The notes under the pieces: generated by a model
The model's database searches: none
Seen by the model: only the letters and a program-made list of their open reading frames with translations
What the model was told of the DNA's origin: nothing
Program-made: the position numbers and the translations under genes
Shown: piece after piece, positions 44,463 through 63,822 of the stretch
Position numbering within the stretch: position 1 is the first letter of the stretch
How the letters are laid out: every line of letters begins with the position of its first letter
Assembly (NCBI GenBank): GCA_000004695.1
Contig: CM000155.2
Span: 2,784,001-2,848,000, forward strand
DNA from: Dictyostelium discoideum
Taxonomy: Eukaryota
Direction of reading: 5' to 3'
Length of the DNA stretch: 64,000 bases

Positions 44463-44733
44463 TCAAATTTTTATTTGTCAAATGTCGGAATGAATTATTA
44501 AGGTATTAAATAGTAATAATTTTAATATTGTAATTCTCAATATCTAAACAATTTTATTATTATTTATTTTTTTTTTATAAAAAAAGTTTTATAATTTCTT
44601 TTTTTTTTTTTTTTTTCAAAATAAATTCCTTTGCTATAAAATTTTCCTATTTTTTTATAAAAAAAAATTATTTATTATATCTAAATTAATTTATAGTAAA
44701 CTTTTTTTTTTTATTTTTTTAAAAAAAAAAAAA

Positions 44734-45773
44734 ATGGATCATCAAAAATTAAATTATTTAATTATAATTATTTTATTATTTTTAACTACTTTTATATATT
44801 TTGGAAACTCAAGTCTTTTAAAAATTGAAGATATAAGGGAAAATAATAATTATAATTATATTTTTTATATAAATCCAAATATAGTAAATAATGATAATAA
44901 AATCAATAATAATAATATAAATAAAAATAAATTTTGTGGAATTAATATAAATAATAGTTGTTCAACAATTAGTAGTGCAATAAATTCATTTAAACAACAA
45001 ATTTTAGATGTTAACCATAAATATCAATCATTAACATTATTATTAATGGATGGTATATATAATTTAAATCAAGAAAATGGTTCCGAAATTACCATTATTG
45101 GAATGAATTTAACAATCAAACCTTTTAATTTTAAAAACCCAAATATAATAATAAAGGGTTCAATTAATAATAAAAATAAAAATAATAATCTTTTTACAAT
45201 AATAAATAATAAAGATAATATAAATAGTAATATAAAATTAATAAATTTAAAATTTCAACAAATAAAATCTACAACTTTAATAAATTATCAAATTGATTCA
45301 AATAAAAATAATAATAACGAAAATATAATTATTTTAAATAATATTGAAATTATTGATTCAAATAATATTATAATTGTTTCAAATTTAGTTGGATCAAAAC
45401 TTTTTATATCAGATCTTTATTTAAAAAATAATAGTGATAATAATAATAATAATAATAATTATAATAATTATAATAATTCTTTAATTAATTTACAATCTTC
45501 AAAATTATTTTTAAATAATACCATTTTAGAAAATAACGAGTTTTCAAATTGTATTTATGATAATTCAAATTCAACAATTGAAATTAATAATAATTTTATT
45601 TTAAGTAAAAATAATAATAATAATAATAATAATAATTTCTTATTTTGTAAAACAAGTTGCTTAATTAAAATAAATAAAAATGAAAATGAAAATAATAATT
45701 TAAAACAATTAGTTATCGAATCAACTAAATCAAAAAATTTATCAAAAATTATTATTTGTGATATATCTAAATT

Positions 45774-45812
<39 letters not shown>

Positions 45813-46125
45813 AACAAAAAAACAAGAAGAAGATTATAAATGTGAAATTGAAATTATTTCACCAATTTTAAAAGAAGAAATTATTACTACTGATAAAAAA
45901 AAAAATTATGGTAAGAGTGATGATACTAGTGATGAGTCTAGTGATGGTGGTAATAGTCAAGAAAAACAATTTATGAAATCATTGGAAATATTTGTAGTGT
46001 GTATTGGTTTAATTATTGGTTTTGCAATGATTGTATCAGCAATTTATTATTTAAATAAATGTTATTTAAAATATCATCCTGATTATTATTCAGAATATAA
46101 TTACGATATTATTCCAGATTTATAA
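44734..46125 (+). CDS. Lineage-specific type-I membrane protein (signal peptide, Asn-rich ectodomain, poly-Thr stalk, one C-terminal TM), 463 aa
   Basis: N-terminal hydrophobic segment LIIIILLFLTTFIYF. Many N-x-S/T sequons. A T13 run. TM segment IFVVCIGLIIGFAMIVSAIYYL followed by a short cytoplasmic tail. I recognise no conserved catalytic motif. Confidence 0.55.
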
Positions 46126-46402
46126 TAATTATAAAAAAGAAAAAAAAAAAAAAAAAACTTAGAAAAATTAAAATTTAATAAATAAAAAAAAAAAAATTTT
46201 TTTAAAAAAAAAAATATCAGTTTTTTTAATTTAATTTCTTTATCAAAAAAAAAATAATAAAAATTCTTTTTTTTAAAAAAAAAGTAATTAACACGTCACT
46301 TTAAATGACATTATCATTTTTTTTTTTTAAAAAATTTTATTTTTCATTTTTTTTTTTTTTTTTTTTTTTTTTTGGGTTGAAAAAAAAAAAAGGGGTCTTT
46401 AG

Positions 46403-46465
<63 letters not shown>

Positions 46466-46537
46466 TATTTTTTATTAAAAAATAAAAAGAAATAATAATT
46501 AATTTATTTATTTAATTAATAATAATTATAATAATAA

Positions 46538-47647
46538 ATGGAAGAAATAAATGAAGAATATGAAAGAATTAAATCATCAAAAAATAAAGAAGGTAGATTT
46601 AATAATCCATTCGGAGTTAGTGGTGTATTTCCAGGATTTTCAAAAGTAGTTAATAGAATTAAAGAGATACGTAAATTTCCAATCATACCATTAACAGAAG
46701 AAGAGAGAAGAGATATTCATCCATGTTTAAAACCAAATTTTGAATTGATTAAACAAGAATATGATTTTAAAACAACAATAAAATCAACATGGATTGGTCA
46801 TTCGACAGTGATTGTACAACTTGAAGGATTCACATTCTTGACAGACCCAGTTTGGAGTGATAGATGCTCACCATTCACATCGATTGGTCCCAAACGTCAT
46901 ACTGACCCAGCTTGTGCAATCTCTGAATTACCAAAAATTGACTTTGTTTTAATTTCACATACCCACTATGACCATTTAGATTATCAATCAGTTGTTGAAA
47001 TTTATAAATTACAAAAACCAACTTTCTACGTCCCATTAGGTATGAAACAATGGTTTTTAGATGCTGGTATATTTGATGTTTTCGAATTAGATTGGTGGGA
47101 AGAAATTAAATTTATTAAAAATGAAAATGAAAATGAAAATAAAAATGAAAATGAAAATGAAAATAAAAATGAAATAAAATTAATATATACACCAGTTAAT
47201 CATAGTTCACGTAGAGGTTTATTTGATAAAGATAAGGCACTTTGGGGTGGTTGGATAGTTCAAGGTGAATTTAGAAGATTTTGGTTCTCTGGTGATACTG
47301 CATATAATGATAAATTATTTAAAGTTATTGGTCATCATTATGGTCCATTTGATTATAGTTTAATTGCAATTGGTGCCTATGATAGAAATAGAGAAATAAT
47401 GAGAGCAAATCATATCGATCCACAAGAAGCAGTAATGATTCATCGTGAAATTAAAAGTAAACGTTCATTCGGTATACATTGGGGTACTTTTACATTAACA
47501 AATGAACCAATTTTAGAACCTCCACAATTACTATTATCAGAATCAAAAAAACAATCATTAAAAGAAAATGAATTTTTCGTTAGTAAAATTGGTGAAACTT
47601 CAATAATCAGTAATGATTTTAATCAAAATAATAATGATGTAAATTAA
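46538..47647 (+). CDS. NAPE-PLD-like metallo-beta-lactamase-fold hydrolase (N-acyl-phosphatidylethanolamine phospholipase D family), 369 aa
   Basis: It contains WIGHSTVIVQLEGFTFLTDPVWSDRCSP...GPKR...ISHTHYDHLD...WFSGDT...IAIGAY...HWGTF. This is collinear with mammalian NAPE-PLD, and the metal-binding His/Asp are conserved. It has an (NENE/K) insertion. Confidence 0.85.
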   Translation: MEEINEEYERIKSSKNKEGRFNNPFGVSGVFPGFSKVVNRIKEIRKFPIIPLTEEERRDIHPCLKPNFELIKQEYDFKTTIKSTWIGHSTVIVQLEGFTFLTDPVWSDRCSPFTSIGPKRHTDPACAISELPKIDFVLISHTHYDHLDYQSVVEIYKLQKPTFYVPLGMKQWFLDAGIFDVFELDWWEEIKFIKNENENENKNENENENKNEIKLIYTPVNHSSRRGLFDKDKALWGGWIVQGEFRRFWFSGDTAYNDKLFKVIGHHYGPFDYSLIAIGAYDRNREIMRANHIDPQEAVMIHREIKSKRSFGIHWGTFTLTNEPILEPPQLLLSESKKQSLKENEFFVSKIGETSIISNDFNQNNNDVN

Positions 47648-47682
47648 ACATTTTTGTATAATATATATATATTAATAAAATT

Positions 47683-47995
47683 TTATTTAATAATTGTTAA
47701 TAATCTTTTTGGATTATTTATTAAAATATTATTAATATCAGTATCAGAATAACCAAACTTTTTCATTCTTGGTATAATATTGAATAGAATATGAGAATAA
47801 CCATGACCACCATAACTAACCAAACGATGTTTTGTATAAATATCATGAGAGATAACAATATTTTCACCATAACCATGTTTAATTAATTGATAAATCCATT
47901 CAATTCTTTGATTATCTGATGGCATTCCAACTTCACCACCAAATGGATAATGTGAAATTTCCATACCCTATACATATATATAAATTATAATATTA

Positions 47996-48035
<40 letters not shown>

Positions 48036-48887
48036 TGTATAATTATTTTATTAATTATTTACAAATAAATCAAATTCTAAGATACAACCAGTTTTGGCAG
48101 TTTCTAGTAGAATATTAATATCATGAATTGTACGATCAATGTGACCAATGATTACTCTTGATAAGTCTGCACCGGAATCTTTTAGGATTTGGATTATTTC
48201 AAGTGGTGCAGTTTGAGATCTACCTGGGTGGATTGAAATAGAGAGTCCGGTTCTTTGTTGGGCTTTTGCTGATGCAATTAATGACTTTTTTTCATTGTTT
48301 GTTAAGGGAAATGAGCAACCTACTTCCCCGATGATACCTGCTTTAATGGATGTATCATCTATACCTATTAAACATTGTTTAACAATTTCATCTTCCATTT
48401 GTTTTTCAGTCATTGATTGAACAAATTGTGAAATTGATTTATCTAAATAGTATCCTGCACCCATTACAATATTTATATTTAATTCTTGTGATACTTTTAA
48501 ACATTGGAGTGGATCTCTACCTATACCTTTAGTTGTCACTTCAACTATTGTCGAGCCACCATTTCTTTTAAACATTTCTAATTCCCTTATTGCAATTTCC
48601 ATTTCATTTAATTGTAAATTATGTAAATTCTTATTATAATTATATTGTACCCAATGATTATTTATAAGTGATATCTTTTCATTTGATAAATCTTCAATTG
48701 TTTTATTACTATTACTATTACCACTACCACTACCACCACCTAAACAACACATTTTTAATTCTTGTTCATTTGGTTTTTCAAAATAATCCAAATAATTTAT
48801 AAATATATGTTCATGCATATGTGTTATACCTAATTCATCTTTTTCTATTAAACCTTTAATTGTTTGAATTTTACCAATTCTTTCTGT

Positions 48888-48890
<3 letters not shown>
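47683..48890 (-). CDS. Phosphotriesterase-related protein (PTER family amidohydrolase), 2 exons, 370 aa
   Basis: Exon 1 is 48063..48890 (MTERIGKIQTIKGLIEKDELGITHMHEHIF...IGEVGCS...ISIHPG...IIGHID...EFDLF). The intron 47968..48062 has a GTAAAT donor and a TATAG acceptor. Exon 2 is 47683..47967 (GMEISHYPFGG...IVISHDIYTKHRLVSYGGHGYSHI...). The metal-ligand His pairs and the carboxylated-Lys region are conserved. The 1113 nt are in frame. Confidence 0.85.
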
Positions 48891-48926
<36 letters not shown>

Positions 48927-49282
48927 TATGAGGTATGAAAATTATTAATGCAGGAAAAAAATATAAAAAAATAAAAAATTAATTAATAATTTAAATTTTA
49001 GATGCCCTAAAAAAAAAAAAATAAAAAAATAAAAAAATAAAAAATTAAAAAAAATATCTTACAAATACTTTGTATAAAATTAAATTAGTAAAAATTTGTT
49101 TAAAAAAAAAAAAAAATAAAATAAAATAAAATAAAGAAGAAAATCTTTGGAATCTAATTTTATTATTTTTAATAATTAAAAAAAGGGATTTTTTTTTTTT
49201 TTTTTTATTTTTTAAAGTAAAAAGTTTTTACATTAAAAATTGATTAGATTTTTTAAAGTTGAAATCTTAATTCTATTAAAAT

Positions 49283-49316
<34 letters not shown>

Positions 49317-49625
49317 TTTTGGCTAATTAAATTTTAAATTTTTTTTTATCCGTTAGTTTAAAAAAAAAAAAAAAAAATCTATTTTTTATTTTGCGCGTGT
49401 TTGGATAAAAATATAATTTTAAAAAAACACTTTTTCCACCAAAACAAAAAAAAAAATTTTTTTTTTTTTTATTTTCCACTTTTTTTTTTTTTCATATTCA
49501 TTTTTTTATATATATATATTTTTTTTTTTTTTACTTTATAAGGAGAAACATTTAATTATTATTCTCAATATTAAAAAATAAAATTTTTTAAAAAAAAATA
49601 TAAAAATATAAAAGAATATAAAAAA

Positions 49626-51611
49626 ATGATAAATAATAATAATAATAATTTTAATTATGAAAATAAAGAAAATCAATATAATCATACCCCTGTTAACAGA
49701 AGTAACAGTGGTGGATTTGAAAAATCAACACCATTATCACCATTATCACCTCAACCAATGATGATGTCACCAAAAACCAATGGTTCAACAAAAACACCAT
49801 TATCACCATTATCACCAAATGATAAAATGGTTTTATCACCACCAAAATCAATAAATAATAATAATAAATTAAATTTAATGGGACCACCAAGTGGAATTCC
49901 ATTAAAAAGACCAACTAGTAATTTATTTGAATATGTTTCAAAACAAATTACATCAAATTCTTTAAATTCAACTACTATTGTATTACCAACTTCAACTTCA
50001 AATGAAAATTTAAATTTATATAATAATAATAATAATAATAATGAATTTTCATTTCCAACACCACAAAGTGTACCTTCAACATCAACAACAACAACAACAC
50101 CAACAACATCAAATAATAATACACCAATACCAACACCAACATTATCAAGAAATAATACATTAAATAGAAGATCAGCACAACAACAACAAGCTAACAAAAC
50201 ATTTTCAAAAACTGGTGAAGAAGATTATTTTTCAACTAAAAAAAGAGAAGATAGAAAAAGTACTCAATTACTAAGACAAAGTAGTAAAAGAGATATGTTA
50301 ATTCAAGCTTCAAGACAATTAAATCAAAGATCATCACCACCAAAACAACAACAACAACAACAACAACAATTACAAAAACAACAAGAAGAAGAAGAATTAC
50401 AAAAACAATTAAAACAAATTAATGAAGAACAACAAAAATTATTACAAGAAAAGAAACAACAACAATTACAAGAATTTTTAATTAAAGAAAAGAAAAGAAC
50501 AGAATCTATTAAGGAGGTTTATACATCAGAGTTTGCATATATTGGTCATTTGAATACAGTGATTGATCAATATCTGCTACCATTGCGTAGAGAGTATTCT
50601 GCACCTGAAGAGGTTAGATTAATTGTATCGATCTTTTCAAATATTGAAAGTATTAGATCAATTAATAAATCCATGCTATTGGATAGGGTTGGTGAACGTA
50701 TTAGTAATATTGGTAGTTCGACAAATACAAGTTTAAATGTAATCATCTCTGATCTATTCTTGGCATTGATTCCATCGATTTCAAATATTTACATTGAATA
50801 TTATGTAAACTATTATCGTTCTTTACATAGTTTAGATTATTGGTTCAATAAATGTAAAAAGTTTAAAAAATTCTTGGATCATGATTCAATGATTTTAAAA
50901 TCATTATTAATTATGCCAATTCAACGTATTCCAAGATATTCTCTACTATTGGATGCTATCATTCGTTTTACAAATCCAACTCATCCTGATTTTCAAAATT
51001 TAAATTTGGCTTTAGAAAAAATGAAACAATTAACTGAAATTATTAATGAAAAAATTCGTCATTCTGAATTAATTCAAAGAGTTACAAATATTAGATTTAA
51101 ATTTAATGATACAATTGGTGTAAGTATTTTTTTTTTTTTTTTTAAATTTATATTTTTATTTATATTTAAAATTATTAATAAATAATTTTTTTTTTTTTAA
51201 AGTTTTTGGATCAAACACATAGAATTTTAATTAAAGATAGTGGTGATAATACACTTCAATTACAACCATTTAAATGTGTTAGTATGTATAATAGCAACAA
51301 TAATAATAATAATAATGAAAATTTAATAGAAGAAGAAGATATAAATAGTAAAGAAAGTGATGATTTAACAGATGAAGAAGAATACAATAGTGGTTTAATT
51401 TTAAATACATCTTTTAAAAGATCATTGTCTTCAATTCCTCAACAATCACAAATTAAAAAAAGTTCTAATAATAGTATTTTAAAGAAATCATCATCAATGA
51501 TTACATTAGTACCAAGTGATTGTGTACTTTATTTATTTAATGATACATTATTATTAGGTACAACTTCTCAAAATAATATAAATAATAATAATAATTTAAA
51601 TGAAGATTCAA

Positions 51612-51653
<42 letters not shown>

Positions 51654-52198
51654 GTAATAATAATGGTAATAATAATGGTAATAATAGTAATGGTAATAGT
51701 AATAATAGTAATGGTAATAATAGTAATAATAAATATAATGTTGTTTTAAAATCAAAATTAGTTGAAATTTTTATAAAGGATTATACAAAATTAGCACCAA
51801 CTATATTTTCAATTCACCATAATAGTGGCACTTATTTAATATCTTGTCAAAATATTGAACAACGTGAAACTTGGGTTAAAGCTATTTTAGAGACAATAGA
51901 GAAATTAATTTCACAAGATAATGAATTGGCAATTAGAAGAAGTAAAATCTCTTTAAAAGGTAGTGATGAATATGGTTGGTATGCTTTCGATTCAGAATGT
52001 CAATCTCAAGATGCAAACCTAATTTCACGTTCTCTTCAAGAGTTGGAGAAGAATCAAGTTTTCACTCCAAAGAAACGTAAATCAATGATTGGTAAAGTAA
52101 AACAAAGAATGTCAAGTGCTTTATCTTCTCCTCATAAAAATCAAAATGTAAAAAGAAATTCTTCATTTGTTTTAAATTCATTATGTAATTATGACTAA
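49626..52198 (+). CDS. RhoGEF (Dbl-homology domain) protein with C-terminal PH-like region, 2 exons, 829 aa
   Basis: Exon 1 is 49626..51119 (Asn/Ser/Thr/Gln-rich N-terminus, coiled-coil QQQLQKQQEEEELQKQLKQINEEQQKLLQEKK, then DH domain ...ESIKEVYTSEFAYIGHLNTVIDQYLLPL...LLIMPIQRIPRYSLLLDAIIRFT...). The intron 51120..51202 runs GTAAGT...TTAAAG. Exon 2 is 51203..52198 (FLDQTHRILIKDSGDNTLQ...). The annotated ORF start at 51206 is a TTG. The 2490 nt are in frame. Confidence 0.8.
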
Positions 52199-52209
52199 AA
52201 TCTAAAAAA

Positions 52210-52242
52210 AAAAAGAAAAAGAAAAAGAAAAAGAAAAAGAAA

Positions 52243-52274
<32 letters not shown>

Positions 52275-52320
52275 AAAAGAAAAAAGGAAAGAAAAGGAAA
52301 GGAAAAGAAAGGAAATCAAA
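52210..52320. repeat. (AAAAAG)n / purine-rich tandem repeat directly after the RhoGEF stop
   Basis: The run is aaaagaaaaagaaaaag... degenerating into (gaaaag)(gaaagg) units. Confidence 0.85.
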
Positions 52321-52489
52321 AAAAAAAAAAAAAAAATCACCTTTGAAATCATTTTAAAAAAAAAAAAATAAGAAACAAATTTACAAAAAAAAAAAATTAA
52401 CCAAATTTAATATTTTTGGTTAAATATATATAATTAATTTAAGAATAAAAAAAGTTAATTCTTTTTTTCAAAATAATGCAACTTCACTA

Positions 52490-52550
52490 AGGTTTTTTTT
52501 TTTTTTTTTTTTGAATTGGATAACGCAATTATTAGTTGCTTCTCCTTGAG
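52490..52550 (-). repeat. Short dispersed repeat family R (poly(A)-terminated on minus strand); other copies at 52725-52774, 53766-53810, 53827-53889, 54855-54900, 56086-56124
   Basis: gaattggataacgcaattatta[g/t]ttgcttctccttgag occurs at least five times, always immediately after a poly-T run on the plus strand. Read on the minus strand this is ...GCGTTATCCAATTC(A)n, the 3' end of a retroelement. One copy (56117-56124) is only 8 nt plus A/T runs. Confidence 0.55.
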
Positions 52551-52862
52551 TTTAAAATTTTTAACTCTATTAAAATGAGAAAAAGTAGGAGAAGCAGGTA
52601 TCGATTGCATTTTCCTTTTAAATAAAGGGAGAAAAAAAGTGACGCCATTCTTATTAAAATAGTTTATTGACAAGTAAACATTAAATCATAATCATTTAAA
52701 ATAATAGTTAATGCAACTTCACTAAGGTTCTTTTTTTTTTTTTTTGAATTAATTATTAGTTGCTTCTCCTTGAGATATAATTTTTTAACTTTTTTTTTGA
52801 ATGAAGTAACGCAAATATAATTTTTTAACTTATTGTTCTATTAAAATTATAATTTCAAAAAA

Positions 52863-52944
52863 GTAAGCTTGCCCGAGCTGGTCTAAGGGGTTGCATTAAG
52901 GCTGCAATATCATTGATACAAGGGTTCGAATCCCTTAGCTTACA
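52863..52944 (+). tRNA. tRNA-Leu (anticodon AAG), long variable arm
   Basis: 82 nt. Acceptor gtaagct/agcttac. D arm tgcccgagctggtctaagggg. Anticodon stem ttgca/tgcaa with loop ttAAGgc. Variable stem-loop atcattgat. T arm aagggttcgaatccctt. Discriminator A. Confidence 0.85.
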
Positions 52945-52974
52945 ATATGTTTAACAAATGAAACTTAAAGTCGT

Positions 52975-52985
52975 GTGTTCGATTC
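52975..52985 (+). promoter_or_regulatory. Candidate external B-box downstream of tRNA-Leu
   Basis: gtgttcgattc lies 31-41 bp after the tRNA 3' end and is near the B-box consensus. Confidence 0.4.
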
Positions 52986-53585
52986 TATCTAAAGATTAGA
53001 AAGGTCTTTGAGCAAAGAGAAAAAAGTTTTTAAGTTTACATTCAGGAAGGCCACAAATTATCAAGAATCCAATAGATTGATTCAACCCATTGTAGTCTCC
53101 TTACCAGTCATATAATCAACAACAGTTTCATAATTTATTTTATCAATTTAATTCAATTAAAATACTGGTTAGAATTTAATTTCAGTCAAAATCCAAATTG
53201 GTTACTTTATTTTCAAATTACTAAATTCAAATTAATATATAGTTAATTTAAATAAACTCATTTTTATAAAATAGAATTAAAACCATTATATACTTCAGTT
53301 AATTTATAATTCAATTAATTTATTAAATAAATATATAAACAAACAAATAAATAAAAAACAAATAAATAAAAAACAAATAAATAAAAAACAAATATAATAA
53401 ATAAATAAAAAAATAAATAAATAAATAAATAAATAAAAAAATAAAAAAATAAACAAATAAATAAATAAATAAGTAAAGTTTAATTAAATATATTAATAAA
53501 AAAAAAAAAGAAAAAAATATTAAAAAAGATTCAACCAACCACTTCTGCTGCATAATCATGTAGTAAACAAAAAAACCATCAGCAT

Positions 53586-53632
53586 GTCAGGTTGGCTGAG
53601 TTGGTAGAGTGTAGGCCTCATAATCCTAAGGT
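53586..53632 (+). pseudogene. 5'-half tRNA-Met(CAT) fragment (truncated after anticodon arm)
   Basis: gtcaggttggctgagttggtagagtgtaggcctcataatcctaaggt equals the first 47 nt of the intact tRNA-Met at 56202, with 3 substitutions, and includes a similar 12-nt upstream flank (ccatcaRcatg). There is no T arm and no acceptor 3' strand. Confidence 0.5.
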
Positions 53633-53956
53633 AGAGCCCATTTTTCCAATTTTAACCTATAAATAATAATTAGGCCACTCAATTAAATAAAAATAGAAAA
53701 AATAATTGACACACATTTAAGATATGTTAGTGAAAGTCTGTTTCATTATAAAAGAAATATCACTTTATTTTTTTTGAATTGGAAAAGGCAATTATAATTA
53801 GTTACAAAGTTAAAAAAAAATCCCTTTTTTTTTTTTTTTTTTTTTTTTTTTGAATTGGATAACGCAATTATTATTTGCTTCTCCTTGAGATGCTAGATCT
53901 CATTTTATTTTATTTTTTTTTTTTTTTACAGGGTCTCTAAAAGAGGGGTTGGTTTA

Positions 53957-53987
<31 letters not shown>

Positions 53988-54286
53988 GGTTCCGAATTTT
54001 GAATTGTATTATTACTTTTGATTAAAACATCTTTTTTTGTCCAAACTTTTTTCTAAATCTTTTTTTATTTTATGGGCTGGTTCGGGATTGATGTTTATGA
54101 CGTATTTGAATTGTTTTTTTTTTAATTGAGTTTTATCCACAATTTCCCTTTTTTTTTGAGGCCATTTGGGTTGCTTAATATTTGGGGGGGTGGTTGGGAT
54201 TTTCCATTTTATTTTCTTTCTATCTTTTTTATTTTTCTTTAAAAAGTTAAAAATCTGGAAATTTTTTGATTAACTTGGGTTCCCAG

Positions 54287-54336
<50 letters not shown>

Positions 54337-54353
<17 letters not shown>

Positions 54354-54836
54354 TTATAGAAAGTACTGAGTGAATTATTGTATTTTTTGAGATGTTTAGG
54401 AAGTTCTATTGCGTGAAGAGGTGAGTTCCATTGTCTGCTAAATTGTAATAGCTTTAGCGAGATTAGTGAGTCTAATTTATTTTGTTCTTCTGGCCGTTGC
54501 TTTGATTTGATTCTTAATGTTTTGTTTATAACCGCTTGTGTCCTGTCCCATGCAGCTCTTTGTGTTTTAATTAGTTCACGTATGACTTGTTGTCTGTGAA
54601 TTATTATTTCTTTTTCATCGTGAATGAGTTTATTTCTTTTGTGCCAGATTTTATCGAATATAATAGCTATTAAATTGGCTACTAGTGCAATTTGTAGATG
54701 GTTTAAAATCTTCACATTCCAGGTGTGAGTGGTGTGTCCACACTTAGTTAGGGTGTAGTTGAAGATTTCTTGTGTGTTTTTGATGTGGGCTTTGCAGTTG
54801 AAGAATATATGTTCTGAGGTCTCATCTTCCCCACAA
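54337..54836 (-). mobile_element. 3'-terminal fragment of a TRE-type (tRNA-gene-targeted, non-LTR/LINE-like) retroelement, copy 1, 5'-truncated
   Basis: About 95% identical to 55315-55815. It encodes the same C-terminal ORF2 tail (121-aa ORF 54350..54715) and ends in poly(A), seen as poly-T 54290-54350 on the plus strand. The adjacent 54100-54300 is low quality. Confidence 0.6.
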
Positions 54837-55151
54837 ATTTTAATTACAAAACTTTTTTTTTTGAATTGGATAACGCAATTATTATTTGCTTCTCCTTGAG
54901 ATGCTAGATCTCATTTTATTTTTTTTTTTTTTTTACAGGGTCTTTTTGATTAAAACATCTTTTTTGTCCAAACTTTTTTCTAAATCTTTTTTTATTTTAT
55001 CGTCTGGTTCGTGATTGATGTTTATGACGTATTTGAATTGTTTTTTTTTTTTTTTAATTGAGTTTTATCCACAATTTCGCTTATTTTTTGTAGGCACCTG
55101 TGCTGCTTAATATTTGTGGTGTTCCAATTGCATCAACAAACCATTATCTGT

Positions 55152-55251
55152 NNNNNNNNNNNNNNNNNNNNNNNNNNNNNNNNNNNNNNNNNNNNNNNNN
55201 NNNNNNNNNNNNNNNNNNNNNNNNNNNNNNNNNNNNNNNNNNNNNNNNNNN
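55152..55251. other. Assembly gap (100 N) inside the retroelement/tRNA cluster
   Basis: A run of 100 n sitting between two copies of a composite repeat. Confidence 0.99.
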
Positions 55252-55256
55252 TTTTT

Positions 55257-55261
<5 letters not shown>

Positions 55262-55316
<55 letters not shown>

Positions 55317-56062
55317 TTATAGAAAGTACTGAGTGAATTATTGTATTTTTTGAGATGTTTAGGAAGTTCTATTGCGTGAAGAGGTGAGTTCCATTGTCTG
55401 CTAAATTGTAATAGCTTTAGCGAGATTAGTGAGTCTAATTTATTTTGTTCTTCTGGCCGTTGCTTTGATTTGATTCTTAATGTTTTGTTTATAACCGCTT
55501 GTGTCCTGTCCCAAGCAGCTCTTTGTGTTTTAATTAGTTCACGTATGACTTGTTGTCTGTGAATTATTATTTCTTTTTCATCGTGAATGAGTTTATTTCT
55601 TTTGTACCAGATTTTTTCGAATATAATAGCTATTAAATTGGCTACTAGTGCAATTTGTAGATGGTTTAAAATCTTCACATTCCAGGTGTGAGTGGTGTGT
55701 CCACACTTAGTTAGGGTGTAGTTGAAGATTTCTTGTGTGTTTTTGATGTGGGCTTTGCAGTTGAAGAATATATGTTCTGAAGTCTCATCTTCCCCACACT
55801 GTTGGCATGGCATGTTGTATATTTTTGGTAGTGCTTTCAGTGTGTATCTCCATAATAGATCTCTACCTTTCATGTTTATTATTTTTTTGATTTCTTTAAA
55901 TGGAAGGTGTTTGCTATTAATTTTGGTCATTATTTCTTTTTGGCCAGGAGTTGGTATGAATTTGTTGTGTTCAGGAGATTGAGTTGTCATCATATCCTCG
56001 TATATTTTTTTTAATTTTGGGAGGTGTTCGTAGTGTGTTTGTTTATTTTGTGGAGTTTTTAA
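55262..56062 (-). mobile_element. 3'-terminal fragment of a TRE-type non-LTR retroelement, copy 2 (ORF2 C-terminus with Cys-rich CCHC-like motif, 3' UTR, poly(A))
   Basis: The minus-strand ORF stays open from about 56062 down to 55313 (...KTPQNKQTHYEHLPKLKKIYEDMMTTQSPEH...CQQCGEDETSEHIFFNCKAH...). It is followed by a 3' UTR ending in ctcagtactttctataaata, then a poly(A) of more than 50 nt (plus-strand T run 55262-55314). Its 5' end lies about 140 bp upstream of tRNA-Met(+) in head-to-head orientation, as expected for TRE5-class elements. Confidence 0.65.
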
Positions 56063-56082
56063 TTGGGTCTAAAAAAAATCCC

Positions 56083-56117
<35 letters not shown>

Positions 56118-56121
56118 AATT

Positions 56122-56167
<46 letters not shown>

Positions 56168-56201
56168 GATCAAGCAGTAAAAAACAAAATTCCATCAACA
56201 T

Positions 56202-56274
56202 GTCAGGTTGGCTCAGTTGGTAGAGCGTAGGTCTCATAATCCTAAGGTCCAGAGTTCGATCCTCTGACTTGACA
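56202..56274 (+). tRNA. tRNA-Met (anticodon CAT), elongator type
   Basis: 73 nt. Acceptor gtcaggt/acttgac (one G-U pair). D arm ggctcagttggtagagc. Anticodon stem taggt/tccta with a U31-U39 mismatch as in metazoan elongator Met. Loop ctCATaa. T arm cagagttcgatcctctg. Discriminator A. A T5 run at 56276-56280 follows. Confidence 0.85.
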
Positions 56275-56275
56275 C

Positions 56276-56280
56276 TTTTT
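56276..56280 (+). terminator. Pol III oligo(dT) terminator after tRNA-Met
   Basis: A ttttt run 2 nt after the tRNA end. Confidence 0.5.
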
Positions 56281-56391
56281 AAAATCCACAAATGACGATT
56301 AGTAATTAAAAAAAAAACACATTACACCGCTTTTAGGTAAAAAAAAAAAAAAACAAAACAAACACATAAATCAAAAATTTTTGTAAAATTC

Positions 56392-56462
56392 GCCGTGATA
56401 GTATAGTGGTAGTACATCAGATTGTGGCTCTGTTGACCCTGGTTCGATTCCAGGTCGCGGCA
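56392..56462 (+). tRNA. tRNA-His (anticodon GTG)
   Basis: 71 nt. Acceptor gccgtga/tcgcggc. D arm gtat/agtggta/gtac. Anticodon loop ttGTGgc. T arm cctggttcgattccagg. Discriminator A. Nearly collinear with metazoan tRNA-His. G-1 is not encoded, as expected in eukaryotes. A T6 run at 56464-56469 follows. Confidence 0.85.
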
Positions 56463-56463
56463 C

Positions 56464-56469
56464 TTTTTT
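56464..56469 (+). terminator. Pol III oligo(dT) terminator after tRNA-His
   Basis: A tttttt run 2 nt after the tRNA end. Confidence 0.5.
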
Positions 56470-56625
56470 AGATACTTTACGAAGTTCGGTTTGTTAAAAC
56501 CGAAAATAAAAATAAAATAAAATAAAATATAAAAACAATTTTTCGTTTTTCGAAAAATCAGTTTTACGTTTTTATACTTTCGCAAACAAATAATACTTTC
56601 ATTGTTTTAAATTATCTCTTTCATT

Positions 56626-56667
56626 AAATAATGTGGTATTGTTAAATTTAACAATACCACATTATTT
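56626..56667. repeat. Perfect 42-bp palindrome (21-bp arms, no spacer) followed by an orphan consensus B-box
   Basis: aaataatgtggtattgttaaa|tttaacaataccacattattt is an exact reverse complement. ggttcgattcc (B-box consensus) follows at 56676-56686, then a T5 run. Confidence 0.8.
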
Positions 56668-57032
56668 GGACCAATGGTTCGATTCCCATTTTTGAAAGTA
56701 CAAACATCCAATTAAAAATGTGGGCTATTGTGATTGGGTGAATATTTTTTTTCTGAGATACGTGGTTGAATGATGAATTCCTCTGAAGTTTATAGCTTTT
56801 GTGGAACAAAATAGGTGAAAAACTCTCATTCTCAAATGGCACAAAACATAATATTGAAAATAAAAAAAACACAATTAACCAAAAAAAAGTTTAAAAAAAA
56901 AAAAAAAAAAAAAAAGGTATCTTTATAGAGTTTTATAATTTAAAAAAAACCCATAATATCTTTTTTATTTAAAAGAATTTTTTTTTTTTTAAATTAATAA
57001 AAGTACAAATTATAAATACAATATAAATTTTA

Positions 57033-58064
57033 TTAATCGGAAAGAAAAGAAACATCACAATAATAACGTTTACATCCATAAGGTCTTTCCGAAAATGAAA
57101 ATAATTTATAACCTTTAGGGCATAAAGGAGTTGGAATATCATTACATTTTTCATAATTTAATTTGCCATCATTTTTAATATTATTATTTATACAACCACT
57201 AAAATATAAACATCTTGAATAATCTCGATGGAATGTTGGTAATAATATTGAATGATTTTGATTTTCAAAAGAAGAATTAGTTTTATCCTGACTATTATCT
57301 TCTTGATCACTACTACATATATTACTAATATTAAAATCTAAACAATTATTTGAATCAATTAATGGAATATTAATATAAATTTTAGTGATTTGAAAGTTTT
57401 TATTATTTTGATCCATAAATCCAAAGCTAATTGTTTTTGAATTTGTAATAACATTATTTAACCAACCGATATCTAAATTGTAAATTGATTTACTATACAT
57501 TTCTGTAAAATTCATTAATTGAAATTGATAATTTAAATTTAATGATTTAGCAATAAATGGATAAAATTGATTATTTTTATTTTTATTATTTTTATTACTA
57601 TTAGATGAATATAAATTATCAATAAAATTAAAAATTCCAGAATTTTGATTATTATTTTCATTTATAGTTAGATATTGATATTTTCTATTAAATAATTGTG
57701 GACCATATAATTTTTCACCACCATTGGTATAAATTAAACGTGTTGCATTGTAAACTTGAAAATAATTAAATTTTGGATAAGATCTTATTAATCCACCCAA
57801 AATTAAATCATCTGTAAAGGCCAATGTAATTAATGACATATTAAAATTTACAATTGATGGGTCCAATGATATTGAAGAAACATAAACTGCACTCATCCCA
57901 ACATTTACTCTTTGTAACCAATAACCACCACATTTTGGAAATTCACAATCTCTATCATCCAATTTTACTTTATAAAATATAAAATCTTTTTCTGATAATC
58001 CATTTATTAATTTTAAATTTAAAAAAAATAAAATTAATTTTAAAATTATTATTTTTTTTAACAT
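57033..58064 (-). CDS. Lineage-specific secreted Cys-rich protein, 343 aa
   Basis: Single exon. Signal peptide MLKKIIILKLILFFLNLKLINGLS. At least 14 Cys, including CEFPKCGGYW and a C-terminal CPKGYKLFSFSERPYGCKRYYC. Many N-glycosylation sequons. I recognise no family. Confidence 0.55.
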   Translation of the reverse strand: MLKKIIILKLILFFLNLKLINGLSEKDFIFYKVKLDDRDCEFPKCGGYWLQRVNVGMSAVYVSSISLDPSIVNFNMSLITLAFTDDLILGGLIRSYPKFNYFQVYNATRLIYTNGGEKLYGPQLFNRKYQYLTINENNNQNSGIFNFIDNLYSSNSNKNNKNKNNQFYPFIAKSLNLNYQFQLMNFTEMYSKSIYNLDIGWLNNVITNSKTISFGFMDQNNKNFQITKIYINIPLIDSNNCLDFNISNICSSDQEDNSQDKTNSSFENQNHSILLPTFHRDYSRCLYFSGCINNNIKNDGKLNYEKCNDIPTPLCPKGYKLFSFSERPYGCKRYYCDVSFLSD

Positions 58065-58292
58065 TTTATTTTTATATTTATTTAAACTTTTTTTTTTTTT
58101 TTTTAAAAGTTATATTACAATTTATAAAAAATGTTTTTAAATTTGTTTTTTTTATTATTTTGTATTTTTAAAAAATTAAATAAATAAAATAAATAAATAA
58201 AAAAAATAAATAAAAAAAATAAATAAATAAATTATTTTGATTTAAAATATTTTATCATTATTTAATTCAAATTAAATATGGCTTAAGGATTA

Positions 58293-58392
58293 NNNNNNNN
58301 NNNNNNNNNNNNNNNNNNNNNNNNNNNNNNNNNNNNNNNNNNNNNNNNNNNNNNNNNNNNNNNNNNNNNNNNNNNNNNNNNNNNNNNNNNNN
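58293..58392. other. Assembly gap (100 N)
   Basis: A run of 100 n. Arm B of the inverted duplication begins immediately to its right. Confidence 0.99.
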
Positions 58393-58557
58393 CCAAATAA
58401 TAATAATACAAATAATAATAATAATAATAATAATAATAGTAAATTAACTATAAATGATTATTCAAATAGGATTGGCTCAATTTCAACAGCATATAATAAT
58501 AATAATAATACTTTATCTTTAGCAATTAGTTCTTCATGTCATTTATTCCTTTATAGG
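58393..58557 (+). pseudogene. Duplicated 3'-terminal fragment of the PP2A-B55 gene (last ~54 codons + stop), cut by the gap
   Basis: Identical to the reverse complement of 8033..8200 (...NNNNNNNNNSKLTINDYSNRIGSISTAYNNNNNTLSLAISSSCHLFLYR*). There is no upstream coding continuation across the gap. Confidence 0.5.
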
Positions 58558-58897
58558 TAAAATCATTTATTTTATTTGATAGGTTAAAAAAAAAAAAAAA
58601 AAATGTATATATTTAGAAAGAAAAAAAGAAATGCAATTGTAAGAGTTAATTCTCTTATAATTAAATAAATAAAAAACTAATATTTAGTTTTTTTTATTGT
58701 TTTTTTTTTTAAAAAAAAAAGGATTCTATTGTTTTTAGTTTTTTTTTTTTTTTTTAATTGTTTTTTATTTTTTGTTTTTTTTTTTTGTTATTTTTTTTTT
58801 TAATTTTTTTTTTTTTTTTTTTTTTTGTTTTTTGTCATTAAATGACGATTGTATTATTATATTATATATTTATTATTATTGATTTTTTTTATTCGAT

Positions 58898-59374
58898 TTA
58901 ATAGAAGGTTGGACCAGAAATCTTTTTACATTCTAAGAAAGATTCGTAAACCCATTGGCATGAATTGATATCGCTTTGGTTCTTTTCTAAACAAGTCATA
59001 AAAGATTTGTATAATGGGTTGCAAGCATTTTCGGTTTGTTGTTGGTTATTGCTCATCATTGATTGTTGTTGTTGTTGTTGTTGAGTGTCGACATTATTGT
59101 TATCTGAACCACCAAAGAGTGATGAAACACCACCAACAAGGGCGTGACCAACTACGCTACCAGCCATAGCACCAGCCATTGAGCTACCCATTGTTGCTAA
59201 CATACCTGGACCTTGGACAACAACTGGTTGAGCTGGTGTAGTGGCAGCTGGGGTTGTAGCAGCTGGAGTTGTTTTAGCTGGTGCTGATGTGGTTGTTGGT
59301 TTTGATGCTGTAGTTGGTTTTGATGCTGGTTTTGAAACTGATCTTGATGATGCTCCACGTCTTGAACCTGCCAT
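58898..59374 (-). CDS. CHCH-domain protein (twin Cx9C), copy B, identical to 7219..7695
   Basis: The 158-aa translation is identical to copy A. Flanking 5' and 3' sequences are also identical. Confidence 0.75.
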   Translation of the reverse strand: MAGSRRGASSRSVSKPASKPTTASKPTTTSAPAKTTPAATTPAATTPAQPVVVQGPGMLATMGSSMAGAMAGSVVGHALVGGVSSLFGGSDNNNVDTQQQQQQQSMMSNNQQQTENACNPLYKSFMTCLEKNQSDINSCQWVYESFLECKKISGPTFY

Positions 59375-59757
59375 TTTTTTATATTTATTATTTATATTAA
59401 TTTATTTGAGAAAGGAGTATAAAAATTCTTTAATAAAAAATTTTATATGTAATGTTATATGAAAGTGTATGAAATTTAAAAATAAAAAAAAAAAAAAAAA
59501 AATTTAAAAGTTTTTTAAAAAAAAAAATGAAAAAAAAAAAAAAAAAATAAAAAAAAATAAAAAAAATAAAAAAATTAAAAAAAAATAAAAAAAAAAAGTT
59601 TTTGGGATAGTAGATTACATGTAATTATTATTTCAACAAAATTCCAATTAAAATTCATATATTTTAGGTGTCATTTGAATTCAACAAATAATTTTAAAAT
59701 TATTTATTTTATTTTTAAATTTTAAAAAAATAAAATAAAATAAAACAAAACAAAATA

Positions 59758-59795
<38 letters not shown>

Positions 59796-60114
59796 ATAAA
59801 AAATTAAGAAATAAAATAAAACTTAAATTTTTATTAATAAATTTATTATTTTAAAATTTTTAATAAAAATGATAAATAAGATTTTTAATAAAAATAGAAA
59901 AAAATAAATAAAAATGGAATTTAATTAAAATTAATTTAATTGGGGTGTTTAGAAAAAAAAAAAAAAAAAAAAAAAAAACGAACGAAAATTTTTTTTTTTT
60001 TTTTTTTTTCATTTTTTAAAATTTTCGTCGGTTTTTTGTTTTTATTTATTTATTTTTTTTTTTTTTTCTTTGTTGTTGTGTAATAATAAATAAATTATAA
60101 ATAGAAATATAAAT

Positions 60115-61138
60115 ATGGATAGTTTTTTTATAAAACCAGGAACAGCTCATACACTTTCATCAAACAGAGCAGGTGCTAAAAATGTAGTTGATACAAGAAT
60201 AAATTCTAGACCATCATCAAATCGTGGTGGTAGAGGTGGAGGTATGTCATCATCTCGTGGTGGTGGTGGTAGAGGTGGTAGAGGTGGATTCATGTCATCA
60301 TCTCGTGGTGGTGGTAGAGGTGGATCTATGTCATCATCTCGTGGTGGTGGTAGAGGCGGAGCTATGTCATCATCCCGTGGTGGTGGTAAATTCAGAGAAA
60401 GAGAATCAGCAACAAATGACACAACAAATAAATATAGAGATAGTAAAAATAATTATAAAAGAAAATTATCAACAGAAAAAGATGATTATTATGATTCAGA
60501 TGATAATCAAGATGATGAAGATAATGAAAAACCATCTGATGAAGAATCAGATGATAATAATAATAATATTAAAAATAATTTCAAAAATAATATAGCAGTT
60601 AAAAAGAATATAAATAAATATAAAAATATAGATTCTGATGATCAATCAGACGATGATGATGATGATGATAATAATAATGGAGAAATTGAAGAATTTCATT
60701 CAGGTGATGAGGATAGATTTAATAGTGAAAATGATTCAGAAGAAGATAAATCATCAATTAAAAAGAGATTAAAATTATCAGTTGTTCAAGAAGATGAAAC
60801 TACTGATGAAAGACGTCTTAGATTAGCAAATGAATATTTAGAGAAAATTAGAAAAACTAAACAAGATTTAGATTTAAATGATGCAGTTAAAGATGATTTA
60901 GATAAATCTTCTGGAAGATATCAATATTCATATCGTCAACAAGTTTCAAATATTAAATTCATTGAAAACTCTTCAAATATAACAATACTCAAAGGTCATT
61001 CTTCACCAATTACTTGTATAGTTTTATCTGATGATCAATCAATTGCATATTCAGCATCACGTGATATAATTATAAAATGTAAAATATATTTAAATATATA
61101 TTTTCAATAATAATCATTTTTTATAATAGTAATATTAA

Positions 61139-61183
<45 letters not shown>

Positions 61184-62244
61184 ATTAATTATTATTAGGG
61201 GATTTAATAAATAAAATTAAATTAAATAAAATTAAAGGATTTATACCATCAAAAAAGAATAGAATTGAATTAGAAAGTTTAGGTAAAGATGGTAAAGAAG
61301 AATTAAAGAAAAAGAGTTATCAAGGTAAAATTTTATCAATGGCATTAAGTTTTGATGGTAAATATTTGGTTACTGGTGGTGAAGAGAAATTAATTAAAGT
61401 TTGGGATACAGAGAGTATGCAAGTGGTTGAAACATTTAAAGGACATAAAGATGTTATATCGGCATTAACATTTAGAAAAGGTACTTATACACTTTATAGT
61501 GGTTCAAATGATCGTACCATAAAGATTTGGGATTTATCACAAATGGCATTCGTCGACACTCGTTATGGCCATCAATCACCAATCACAGCAATGGATTCAT
61601 TATCACGTGAACGTTGTATCTCTGTTTCAACTGATAAAACCGTTAGAGTTTGGAAAATCCCTGAAGAGTCACAATTGATCTTTAGAGGTCATACTCATTC
61701 TGTAGATTGTTGTGTTTTAGTGGCTGAAGATAAATTTTTAACTGGTTCACAAGAAGGTTCTATTGCTTTGTGGAATGTAAATAAAAAGAATGCAACTTTC
61801 ATAAAGAATAATGCTCATCCTGTTAATAGTGGTGGTAATAGTGGGACTGATTCTTTTTCATGGATTTCAAGTGTTTCAGCCATTCCAAACTCTGATATGG
61901 CAGCTTCTGGAAGTTGTGATGGTTCCATTCGTCTTTGGTCAATTATGGGTGGTGATAAACTCAAAGAAATTAATCAAATCCCTGCTATTGGTTTCGTTAA
62001 TGATTTAAAATTCGCTCATGATTGTTCTTTCTTATTAGCTGCCGTCTCTAAAGAACATAAATTTGGAAGATGGAAGAAAATTGGTTCCGCTAAAAATTCA
62101 CTTTTATTAATTAATTTAAAAGAACAAGTTAATCCAAATGATTTATTACAACAAGAAGAACAAGTTGAAATTGAACTTAATAATAATATAGAAAATCAAG
62201 ATGAAGATGAAGAAGATGAAGAAGAAGAAGAAGAAGAAAATTAA
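60115..62244 (+). CDS. U3 snoRNP WD40 protein Rrp9/U3-55K-like with N-terminal RGG (GAR) repeats, 2 exons, 669 aa
   Basis: Exon 1 is 60115..61078. It has five MSSSRGGG(R)GG repeats, an acidic region, then ...DERRLRLANEYLEKIRK...ILKGHSSPITCIVLSDDQSIAYSASRDIIIK. The intron 61079..61198 has a GTAAAA donor and a TATTAG acceptor. Exon 2 is 61199..62244 (WDLINK...GKYLVTGGEEKLIKVWD...GSNDRTIKIWDL...TDKTVRVWKI...GSIALWN...GSIRLWS...), a WD40 propeller with an acidic C-terminus. The 2010 nt are in frame. Confidence 0.8.
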
Positions 62245-62361
62245 ACTTTTAAAAGAAGAAATAATAAAAAAATAAAATAAAAAAAAAAATTAAAAATAAT
62301 ATTGATTTCCTTTGTTTTAACTTTTTTAATTTTATTTTATTTTTTATTTTTATTTTTTTTA

Positions 62362-62545
62362 TTATATATCAACAATAACATGAATATCTGATTTATCAGG
62401 ATTTTCTTCAATTTTCATACATGAATATGTTATTGCTTTAATTTCAGTACCAGTTGTATGTTTGCTTTTATCTAATTCAACACCTTTACTATAATTACAA
62501 ATAAAATAAAAATAATAAAATTAGTAGAAAAATAAAAAAATAAAC

Positions 62546-62641
<96 letters not shown>

Positions 62642-63142
62642 GAAAGGGTTACCCTATTGCTTTAATTGAAAAGTTTTCACGATCAAATGAAATGATTTGA
62701 ACTTGTTTAAATATAATGAATTCAGTACTGAAAACAAATAAAAATTCATCCAATAATGCAAATAATAATGAATCCATATCATGACCATTAACACTTATAG
62801 TTTGTTCAGTTGCGCTATCATCCAATTCAACTGAATCTAATTCAACCATATAGTTATTCATAATTAATACCATTTGTTCAAGTGCTTCTTTTAAATCTTT
62901 ACCCCATGTATGCTATTTTTTAGGAAATAAAAAACTAATCTATTAATATATGTTCATTATTATTATCATGATTATTATTATTATGGTAATCTTACAAACA
63001 TAATATCAGCGGTATGGTCTAAATCTATATTGATGATTGTTTTGGTTAGTATTTTTTTAATATATAGAGTATTTTTTGTGGTTATATTTAGTATTTATTT
63101 ACATTCAAAGTTTTTTAATTGACCTAAACCATAGCTTTCCAT
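62362..63142 (-). CDS. Archease (tRNA-ligase cofactor), 4 exons, 151 aa
   Basis: Exon 1 is 63103..63142 (MESYGLGQLKNFE). Exon 2 is 62996..63024 (YLDHTADIMF). Exon 3 is 62653..62912 (HTWGKDLKEALEQMVLIMNNYMVELDSVE...GHDMDSLLFALLDEFLFVFSTEFIIFKQVQIISFDRENFSIKAIG). Exon 4 is 62362..62488 (GKGVELDKSKHTTGTEIKAITYSCMKIEENPDKSDIHVIVDI*). It is collinear with the conserved archease blocks (YLDHTADVQLHAWG...SLLF.FLDE.L...SIG.G.E.......GTEVKAITYS). Donors are GTAAAT, GTAAGA and GTAACC. The 456 nt are in frame. Confidence 0.8.
62551..62640. repeat. (ATT/AAT)30 microsatellite inside archease intron 3
   Basis: A perfect 90-nt ttattattatt... run. Confidence 0.9.
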
Positions 63143-63822
63143 TTTACATATATAAATATACTATTTTTAATTAAATGATTTATTTTGAGAGAAAATGAAA
63201 AAAAAATTTTAAAAAAAAGAAAATAAAAATAAAAATAAAAATAAAAAAAAAAAAAAAAAAAAAATTAAAATAGAAAAAAAAAAAAAAAAATATAAATAGT
63301 TTTTATTTTTTAGATTGATTTTTATTATTGGATTAATCTAAAATTGATATTAATAAATCTTATTTCCCAAAATTAAAAAAATAAAAGTTTTTGAAACACA
63401 TTTTTCATGTTTTTCTTGGAATTTCTCAATTTAATATTTTTTTTTTATTGCTTTTTTTTTAATTTTTTATTTTTTTTTTTATTTTTTTTTTTCATTTTTA
63501 TTTTTTTTTAAAAGATTAGTCTTTGTAGTAATAAAAAAAAAAAAAAATTATAATAAAAATAAAAAAAAAAAAACCAAATAAAAAAATAAAATAAATAACT
63601 TGTGTTATTTTAAAAATAAAAAAAATTCAAAAATAAAAAATAAAAAAAATAATAAAATAATAGCTAACCTATCATATTTCATATTTCATAGTTGTTTTTT
63701 TTTTTTTTTTTTTAAATCCACTATCTTTTTTATTTTTTAAATATATTTCTTTTTTTCTTTCTCTTATTAAAATAATCTTTTTTTTATAAATGATAAAAGA
63801 TTAAAAAAAAAAAAAAAAAAAA

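Follow-up and report, generated by a model that had tools for sequence, protein, structure and literature searches.

Stacked TRE5-A copies at a Dictyostelium discoideum tRNA gene cluster and the probable origin of an apparent tandem duplication in assembly

The retrotransposon TRE5-A of Dictyostelium discoideum has the layout AB-ORF1/ORF2-BC, with a B-module of 290 bp, a C-module of 134-137 bp and two open reading frames (ORFs), the first of which encodes a 51-kDa protein (PMC3159450, PMC5911963). Among the TRE5 elements, the 3' B-module is specific to TRE5-A and is lacking in TRE5-B and TRE5-C; the TRE5-A C-module ends in a stem-loop that is needed for retrotransposition, mutations C38A, A35C, C26A and T15C of this module have been published, and the variant TRE5-A.2 lacks 72 bp of BC, so that of its C-module the 3'-terminal 87 bp remain (PMC3159450). 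TRE5-A integrates in strict orientation at a primary site 47 +/- 3 bp upstream of transfer RNA (tRNA) genes; a TRE is present at 61% of the D. discoideum tRNA genes, and repeated hits produce TRE-TRE tandems (PMC5391098). Targeting depends on the B box and TFIIIC, the ORF1 protein binds TFIIIB subunits, and integration occurs by target-primed reverse transcription (PMC5911963). Here we analyse a stretch of 64,000 nucleotides of the D. discoideum assembly GCA_000004695.1 (contig CM000155.2, positions 2,784,001 to 2,848,000; hereafter, the window, with positions counted from its first letter), in which a tRNA gene cluster is interspersed with pieces of TRE5-A and two similar TRE5-A 3' regions lie on either side of an assembly gap.

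The original prediction, which was made from the window itself, described the cluster as a landing pad for TRE5-class elements, with two minus-strand fragments of the ORF2 C-terminus, each adjoining poly(A) and a repeat X, and at least six copies of another repeat, R. X plus fragment was taken to be a composite of different repeats that was tandemly duplicated around the gap, either by unequal crossing-over or by expansion in assembly. The alignments identify the region as a D. discoideum tRNA gene cluster occupied by TRE5-A copies. They also make the second of the two proposed origins the better explanation: the apparent duplication of X plus fragment is probably an assembly expansion that involves a chimeric contig end.

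For comparison, we used five loci, L001-L005, four of which were fetched from the chromosome-scale assembly GCA_054883475.1. In L001, located beside another tRNA-Met gene, an uninterrupted ORF2 end is followed by a stop codon, an A-run of ~40, ~290 bp, ~140 bp and oligo(A), and the window series of TRE fragment, poly(A), X and R aligns to this locus base for base. On this alignment, the four pieces are successive parts of one element, D. discoideum TRE5-A, in the order ORF2 3' end, internal A-run, 290-bp 3' B-module, ~140-bp C-module and oligo(A) tail. X is accordingly the C-module with most of the 3' B-module, R is the terminal stem-loop region of the C-module, and the poly(A), previously taken for the 3' end of the element, is the internal A-run. 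The supposed composite is a single TRE5-A 3' region, contiguous in L001. The 3' untranslated region, that is, the B-module followed by the C-module and oligo(A), spans 53852-54288 in the window and 11158-11583 in L001; the measured lengths of the two modules, ~295 and ~142 bp, include variation in the length of A-runs.

Of the TRE5-A ORF2, which encodes endonuclease, reverse-transcriptase and zinc-finger domains and has a -1 frameshift between it and ORF1, the C-terminal 250 amino acids (aa) are present, and their translation contains the motif C-x2-C-x7-H-x4-C. A protein search with the ORF2 fragment yielded D. discoideum proteins with 99% identity and relatives in Dictyostelium only, all named simply 'hypothetical protein'; the match to the Pfam family zf-RVT is weak and below the threshold (E = 0.015). 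The TRE5-A copies in the window lack the A-module and ORF1 and, owing to truncation, the endonuclease and reverse-transcriptase domains. The missing 5' part can be seen in L004 and L005, where complete elements consist of a tandem pair of ~200-bp 5' modules (the first of these 5'-truncated in L005), a 290-bp module, ORF1, an ORF2 remnant, a second 290-bp module and the terminal module. The 5' B-module (6209-6498 in L004 and ~4209-4497 in L005) shows 98% identity to the 3' B-module and contains the ATG of the 444-aa ORF1. A protein search with the N-terminus of ORF1 that is encoded in the B-module returned short gene calls only, so the 5' B-module was demonstrated through L004 and L005 instead.

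Assignment of the pieces to TRE5-B, TRE5-C, TRE3 or DGLT-A, or of X and R to independent non-autonomous repeats, appears very unlikely. The comparison was made without a Dictyostelium repeat library, and the end of one micro-insertion (52790-52814; TTGCGTTACTTCATTC) is divergent and could belong to TRE5-C, the C-module of which is 78% identical to that of TRE5-A (PMC3159450). However, a 3' B-module, which TRE5-B and TRE5-C do not have (PMC3159450), is present, and X and R are contiguous with ORF2 in L001, L002 and L005. Furthermore, the pieces lie upstream of the tRNA genes and on the opposite strand, whereas TRE3 elements are found 40-150 bp downstream (PMC5911963).

The region around the gap can be read from left to right as follows. 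The resident TRE5-A.1 element, on the minus strand, starts with its oligo(A) tail, which reads T27 on the plus strand, followed by its C-module (53852-53993); the two together span 53825-53993, and the last ~50 nt of the C-module, stem-loop included, correspond to R. Then come, on the same strand, the 3' B-module that makes up most of X (53994-54288; 98% identity over 292 bp to the 5' B-module of L004), the internal A-run between the ORF2 stop and the B-module (54289-54351), and the first of the two ORF2 3' ends, hereafter copy 1 (54350-54835), which is 5'-truncated inside the CCHC motif and begins with TGTGGGGAAG. Copy 1 is followed by a 17-nt junction, AATTTTAATTACAAAAC (54836-54852), and by the minus-strand 3' end of a TRE5-A.2-type element (54853-55151), in which A10 precedes a C-module that has the BC deletion and a portion of the B-module; the junction reads ...CCAATTC-A10-GTTTTGTAATTAAAATT-TGTGGGGAAG. 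This 3' end is 96.7% identical to the TRE5-A.2 of L004, with a gapless alignment at the deletion, except that the last 28 nt before the gap (55124-55151) do not align to anything in the comparison loci. The 100-N gap (55152-55251) separates it from the right contig, which starts inside an internal A-run (T56) and continues into 758 bp of the ORF2 3' end, copy 2 (55252-56070, minus strand). The two ORF2 fragments (54289-54835 and 55252-55798) are 98.9% identical over 547 bp and lie ~963 bp apart. Thus, the description of two minus-strand ORF2 C-terminal fragments holds, but the Cys/His motif is only partly preserved in copy 1, whereas the second fragment runs on to 56070. Similarly, X does occur twice, as part of the 3' untranslated region of the same element and, next to copy 2, with the TRE5-A.2-type deletion.

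The orthologous locus, L002, was retrieved from GCA_054883475.1 through the neighbouring single-exon gene (57033-58064). L002 shares with the window the three tRNA genes, the half tRNA-Met and, at tRNA-Leu, all three remnants; it has no gap and carries a single 1.25-kb TRE5-A.1 element with matched target-site duplications. The tandem that is present in the window is therefore absent from the gap-free orthologous locus, and an independent assembly does not reproduce it; L002 has the single copy of X plus fragment that the original prediction itself had set against a tandem. Identity between L002 and the window is 100% across 52000-53987 and again across the 804 bp of 55282-56085, long homopolymers in the flanks included. 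Outside clustered patches and homopolymer lengths, the two assemblies agree, with multi-kilobase stretches free of any mismatch, which implies that the two genomes are the same or very closely related. The resident C-module is identical to L002 up to 53987. Differences start at 53988, immediately after a T29 run, and amount to 16 in 217 bp (53988-54204), 9 of the 16 being G in the window and T in L002, a patch read here as miscalls. The internal A-run is T63 in the window and 33 nt in L002.

A multiple alignment shows where the left contig departs from the local sequence. In the C- and B-modules, copy 1 shares the private alleles of L002, the 16 differences, which extend into the 3' B-module (53994-54288), notwithstanding. 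At the variable sites in ORF2, by contrast, it carries the alleles of the paralogue L001 in four cases out of four, whereas copy 2 is identical to L002. Because local B/C alleles are joined to L001-type ORF2 alleles, copy 1 is probably a chimera that switches at the internal homopolymer (54289-54351). By its alignment to L002, 55252-56070 is the true continuation of the resident TRE5-A.1 fragment.

The junction behind copy 1 points away from this tRNA gene as well. In L005 (3909-7259), tRNA-Thr(AGT) has a TRE5-A.2 inserted 47 bp upstream and bounded by a 14-bp target-site duplication; this element forms a tandem with a truncated TRE5-A.1 of older date, and at the equivalent junction of this genuine A.2/A.1 tandem stands the target-site duplication of tRNA-Thr itself. 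In such tandems, the inner junction is the target sequence of the element's own tRNA gene and the newer element lies nearer to the tRNA gene. At the tRNA-Met of the window, neither pattern is seen: 54836-54852 bears no relation to AAAAAAAATCCCGAT, the tRNA-Met target, and what has been added is found within the resident element. Therefore, the block 54350-55151 looks like a tandem junction that formed at a different tRNA gene, and AATTTTAATTACAAAAC is presumably the target sequence of that other locus.

In the scenario that we favour, expansion in assembly, the left contig would leave the true local C- and B-modules, cross the long homopolymer and carry on with reads that belong to a TRE5-A.2/TRE5-A.1 tandem at some other place in the genome. 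The right contig takes up again within the same resident element, and a merger of the two contigs would thus have failed; a gap would then have been inserted, with ~550 bp and the foreign sequence duplicated as a result.

Several observations weigh against this scenario and, for the most part, favour a tandem that really exists in the strain of the window, with a TGTGGGG-truncated A.1, an A.2 and the 1.25-kb A.1 arranged head to tail upstream of tRNA-Met. Repeated integration normally leads to TRE-TRE tandems, which are common and genuine (PMC5391098), and L005 provides an example with the same A.2/A.1 composition. The chimeric alleles fit a real tandem too, if the single copy in L002 resulted from recombination between the two copies or from assembly collapse; the allele pattern matches a recombinant. 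Target-site deletions often accompany 5'-truncated TRE5-A insertions (PMC3159450) and could have removed the inner target-site duplication. GCA_054883475.1 may stem from a different strain. A mini-insertion next to tRNA-Met, flanked by a perfect 15-bp duplication, corresponds to a precise empty site in L002, which suggests real TRE5-A polymorphism at this locus, so that one real TRE5-A event or more may separate the genomes. Finally, the donor locus of 54350-55151 was not found among L001-L005, and the 17-nt junction is absent from these loci. Nevertheless, a real tandem appears unlikely. Successive integrations at -46 would leave the tRNA-Met target at the inner junction and the added material between the element and the tRNA gene, and neither is the case. 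The flanks are identical to L002 down to the long homopolymers, the final 28 nt before the gap align to nothing, and the duplicate begins exactly at the gap edge, as does the other, demonstrably spurious duplicate in the window.

The alternative that the resident B/C-modules and ORF2 fragment were duplicated in place, by local unequal crossing-over or replication slippage, is hardly credible. The high similarity and close spacing of the two ORF2 fragments are what such a duplication would produce. A local duplicate, however, should carry the local private alleles, whereas the four sites that distinguish copy 1 from copy 2 all have the L001 allele in copy 1, which contradicts the unequal crossing-over that had been proposed. 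Moreover, the BC module next to copy 2 is the TRE5-A.2 deletion variant rather than a copy of the local BC, and the 17-nt junction has no local source.

The assembly context of the window is consistent with expansion at contig ends. The window contains four 100-N gaps (6899-6998, 43581-43680, 55152-55251 and 58293-58392), and its self-comparison reveals only two repeats longer than 250 bp, and each of them opens with the base that directly follows a gap. The first is the TRE5-A duplication; in the second, 6999-8200 is the reverse complement of 58393-59594, with 98.8% identity. The latter sequence is single-copy in L003, where the two contigs overlap, and hence this duplicate is an unmerged contig overlap. 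The contigs are also ordered differently in GCA_054883475.1, where 43681-58292 is followed by 1.1 kb that is missing from the window, next to which come 6999-43580 in reverse complement and, behind it, 58393-64000; this mismatch in order and orientation reflects either a scaffolding error or a large rearrangement. At two contig ends (43681-43900 and 58280-58292), doubled letters and G-for-T calls occur. The apparent tandem composite repeat should not be counted as biology or used for inferences on copy number or recombination, and the scaffold should be treated as one with unmerged contig overlaps and a contig order at odds with a chromosome-scale assembly.

With the tandem set aside, the locus retains the properties of a landing pad, as predicted. 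At least five separate 5'-truncated TRE5-A insertions are found upstream of tRNA-Leu and tRNA-Met, with 5' ends at 46, 46, 48, 48 and ~51 bp from the tRNA genes. All the TRE5-A pieces are on the minus strand, opposite to the plus-strand tRNA genes, with their 5' ends facing the tRNA 5' ends, and three of the insertions have target-site duplications, of 12-13, 15 and 15 bp. R was found in seven places, in varying states of completeness (52513, 52746, 52799, 53776, 53852, 54863 and 56117), which bears out the count of at least six; it is the terminus of the C-module rather than an independent repeat. The motif TTTTTGAATTGG has five matches against 0.25 expected. The last 54 nt of the C-module have a predicted fold of -11.3 kcal/mol (z = -3.1), and C38, A35, C26 and T15, counted from the 3' end of R, are the bases named in the published mutations and fall within the predicted stems.

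Upstream of tRNA-Leu, three minus-strand remnants are stacked. The outermost (52493-52550) comprises oligo(A)20 and the terminal 38 nt of the C-module, with 1 mismatch in 38, and is identical in L002. The second, recognized by alignment (52731-52774), consists of A15 and 29 nt of the C-module end with a 9-nt internal deletion, and a distance of 48 bp separated its 5' end from tRNA-Leu until the next insertion occurred. That next insertion is the micro-insertion (52790-52814, also present in L002), a mere 25 bp made up of A9 and 16 nt of a variant C-module-like end, TTGCGTTACTTCATTC, that differs from the TRE5-A C-module and might come from TRE5-C; on its two sides are the copies (52775-52789 and 52815-52829) of a perfect 15-bp target-site duplication, ATATAATTTTTTAAC, and the site lies 48 bp upstream of tRNA-Leu.

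Upstream of tRNA-Met, an old, degenerate C-module-end remnant of ~35 nt (53768-53805, minus strand), detected by alignment and by motif search, would have been ~51 bp from the gene before the later insertions. For the 1.25-kb TRE5-A.1 fragment, the flanking sequence is AAAAAAAA(A)TCCC and the 5' end lies 46 bp upstream of tRNA-Met; the left copy of its target-site duplication (AAAAAAAAATCCC) is at 53812-53824, and the same pair flanks the single element in L002. This arrangement is what the described mechanism, which acts on Pol III-bound tRNA genes, would generate. Target-primed reverse transcription would start at the oligo(A) tail and the C-module stem-loop, incomplete synthesis would yield 5'-truncated copies, and staggered nicks would account for target-site duplications of 12-15 bp. 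Each later insertion at the same position would shift the older copies outward, producing head-to-tail TRE-TRE tandems.

The piece nearest to tRNA-Met is the mini-insertion (56086-56155, minus strand), 70 bp of the structure T31-GAATTGGT-A31. It lies between perfect 15-bp target-site duplications AAAAAAAATCCCGAT (56071-56085 and 56156-56170), with tRNA-Met 46 bp further downstream, and near-identical strains may differ in whether they carry it. The insertion is a perfect hairpin that contains only 8 nt of the TRE5-A 3' end (GAATTGGT). Inverted duplications can arise by LINE-1 twin priming, also known as 5' inversion, and by snap-back synthesis of the reverse transcriptase. Like these, the mini-insertion has the tail region duplicated in inverted orientation, with the target-site duplications on either side intact; unlike LINE-1 5' inversions, it includes merely 8 nt of element sequence, and this locus is the sole example. 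This structure would fit a snap-back or twin-priming event once cDNA synthesis had covered 8 nt.

Copy 1 of the window (54826-54835) and the L005 copy (6295-6304) share the same 5' start nucleotide (TGTGGGGAAG, inside the CCHC motif) at unrelated target sites, and both of these TRE5-A.1 copies sit directly behind a TRE5-A.2 3' end. The shared 5' end may be a recurrent truncation or start point, or a coincidence. It is doubtful that the strain of the window really has the extra TRE5-A copies together with a hairpin mini-insertion produced by abortive snap-back or twin priming, with TGTGGGGAAG marking a preferred stop or start of cDNA synthesis.

The tRNA genes of the cluster are all on the plus strand, as originally described. 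tRNA-Leu (AAG; 52863-52944; Rfam, 50.8 bits), tRNA-Met (CAT; 56202-56275), which is the target of the TRE5-A insertions, and tRNA-His (GTG; 56392-56463), which has no TRE5 insertion upstream, were detected by both ARAGORN and Rfam. The half tRNA-Met (53565-53632, 68 nt) is a pseudogene that comprises the 5' half and 21 nt of upstream flank, with 88% identity to 56181-56248; it has neither a T-arm nor a B box, and both ARAGORN and Rfam left it uncalled. Across 50000-59000, a scan by E-value with Rfam produced only chance-level matches beyond the three tRNAs, and no further repeats were found in the spacers 52945-53850 and 56276-57032.

Several side observations concern the tRNA genes and their surroundings. 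The segments 52470-52712 and 52705-52990 show weak collinear similarity that extends past the shared C-module remnant and its 21-nt flank (TAATGCAACTTCACTAAGGTT), which marginally suggests an old ~235-bp tandem duplication including a now-degenerate tRNA-Leu. The possible second tRNA-Leu, at ~52590-52660, has a local alignment score of 23, against a mean of 17.3 for shuffled sequences (standard deviation 2.5, maximum 26). An external B-box-like sequence, GTGTTCGATTC, is located at ~52985-52995, ~40 bp downstream of tRNA-Leu. A similar B-box-like sequence, GGTTCGATTCC (56677-56687), follows a perfect 42-nt palindrome (56626-56667) that lies ~165 bp downstream of tRNA-His. At the window's opposite end, tRNA-Ile (AAT; 596-668) has no TRE5-A upstream; ~90-245 bp downstream of this gene (window 596-915), a stretch with an A26 end has two short matches to the flank of the L001 TRE5-A and, on these weak similarities, may be a remnant of a downstream-targeting (TRE3-type) element.

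Compared with the described elements, TRE5-A.1 (formerly DRE) has the same 3' architecture as the copies in the window, namely, the zinc-knuckle end of ORF2, an A-run, the 290-bp B-module, a ~137-bp C-module with the terminal stem-loop and oligo(A). It likewise shows the 5' end facing the tRNA gene at 46-48 bp upstream, 5' truncation and target-site duplications; unlike TRE5-A.1 as such, every copy in the window is a 5'-truncated, dead one. With TRE5-A.2, the segment 54853-55123 shares the B/C deletion and aligns without gaps to the L004 copy (5800-8277, a complete TRE5-A.2 with two A-modules) and to that of L005. The deletion measures 69 bp against L001, and the part retained between the deletion junction and the 3' end amounts to 87 bp as counted on L001 and to 81 bp in 54853-55123, where the A-runs are shorter. 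A whole TRE5-A.2 is a non-autonomous derivative with the layout AB-ORF1-BC and a large deletion in ORF2, as seen in L004 and L005; in contrast, the window has ~270 bp of the 3' end before the gap, into which the upstream part falls, and the presence of this element at the locus is doubtful. The two-ORF2-fragment arrangement differs from TRE-TRE tandems in having no target sequence at the inner junction and in being absent from the second assembly. The insertions at the individual tRNA genes, by contrast, match those tandems (Spaller et al. 2017, PMC5391098) in the same head-to-tail stacking at -47, with three insertions at tRNA-Leu and two or three at tRNA-Met. The TRE5-A.1 and A.2 modules, their position and orientation, the target-site duplications and the stacking have all been described already. 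The locus illustrates the known position- and orientation-specific stacking of TRE5-A ~47 bp upstream of tRNA genes, and its sole addition to that picture comes from two insertions so short that they reveal how small a part of the C-module may be copied in an integration event.

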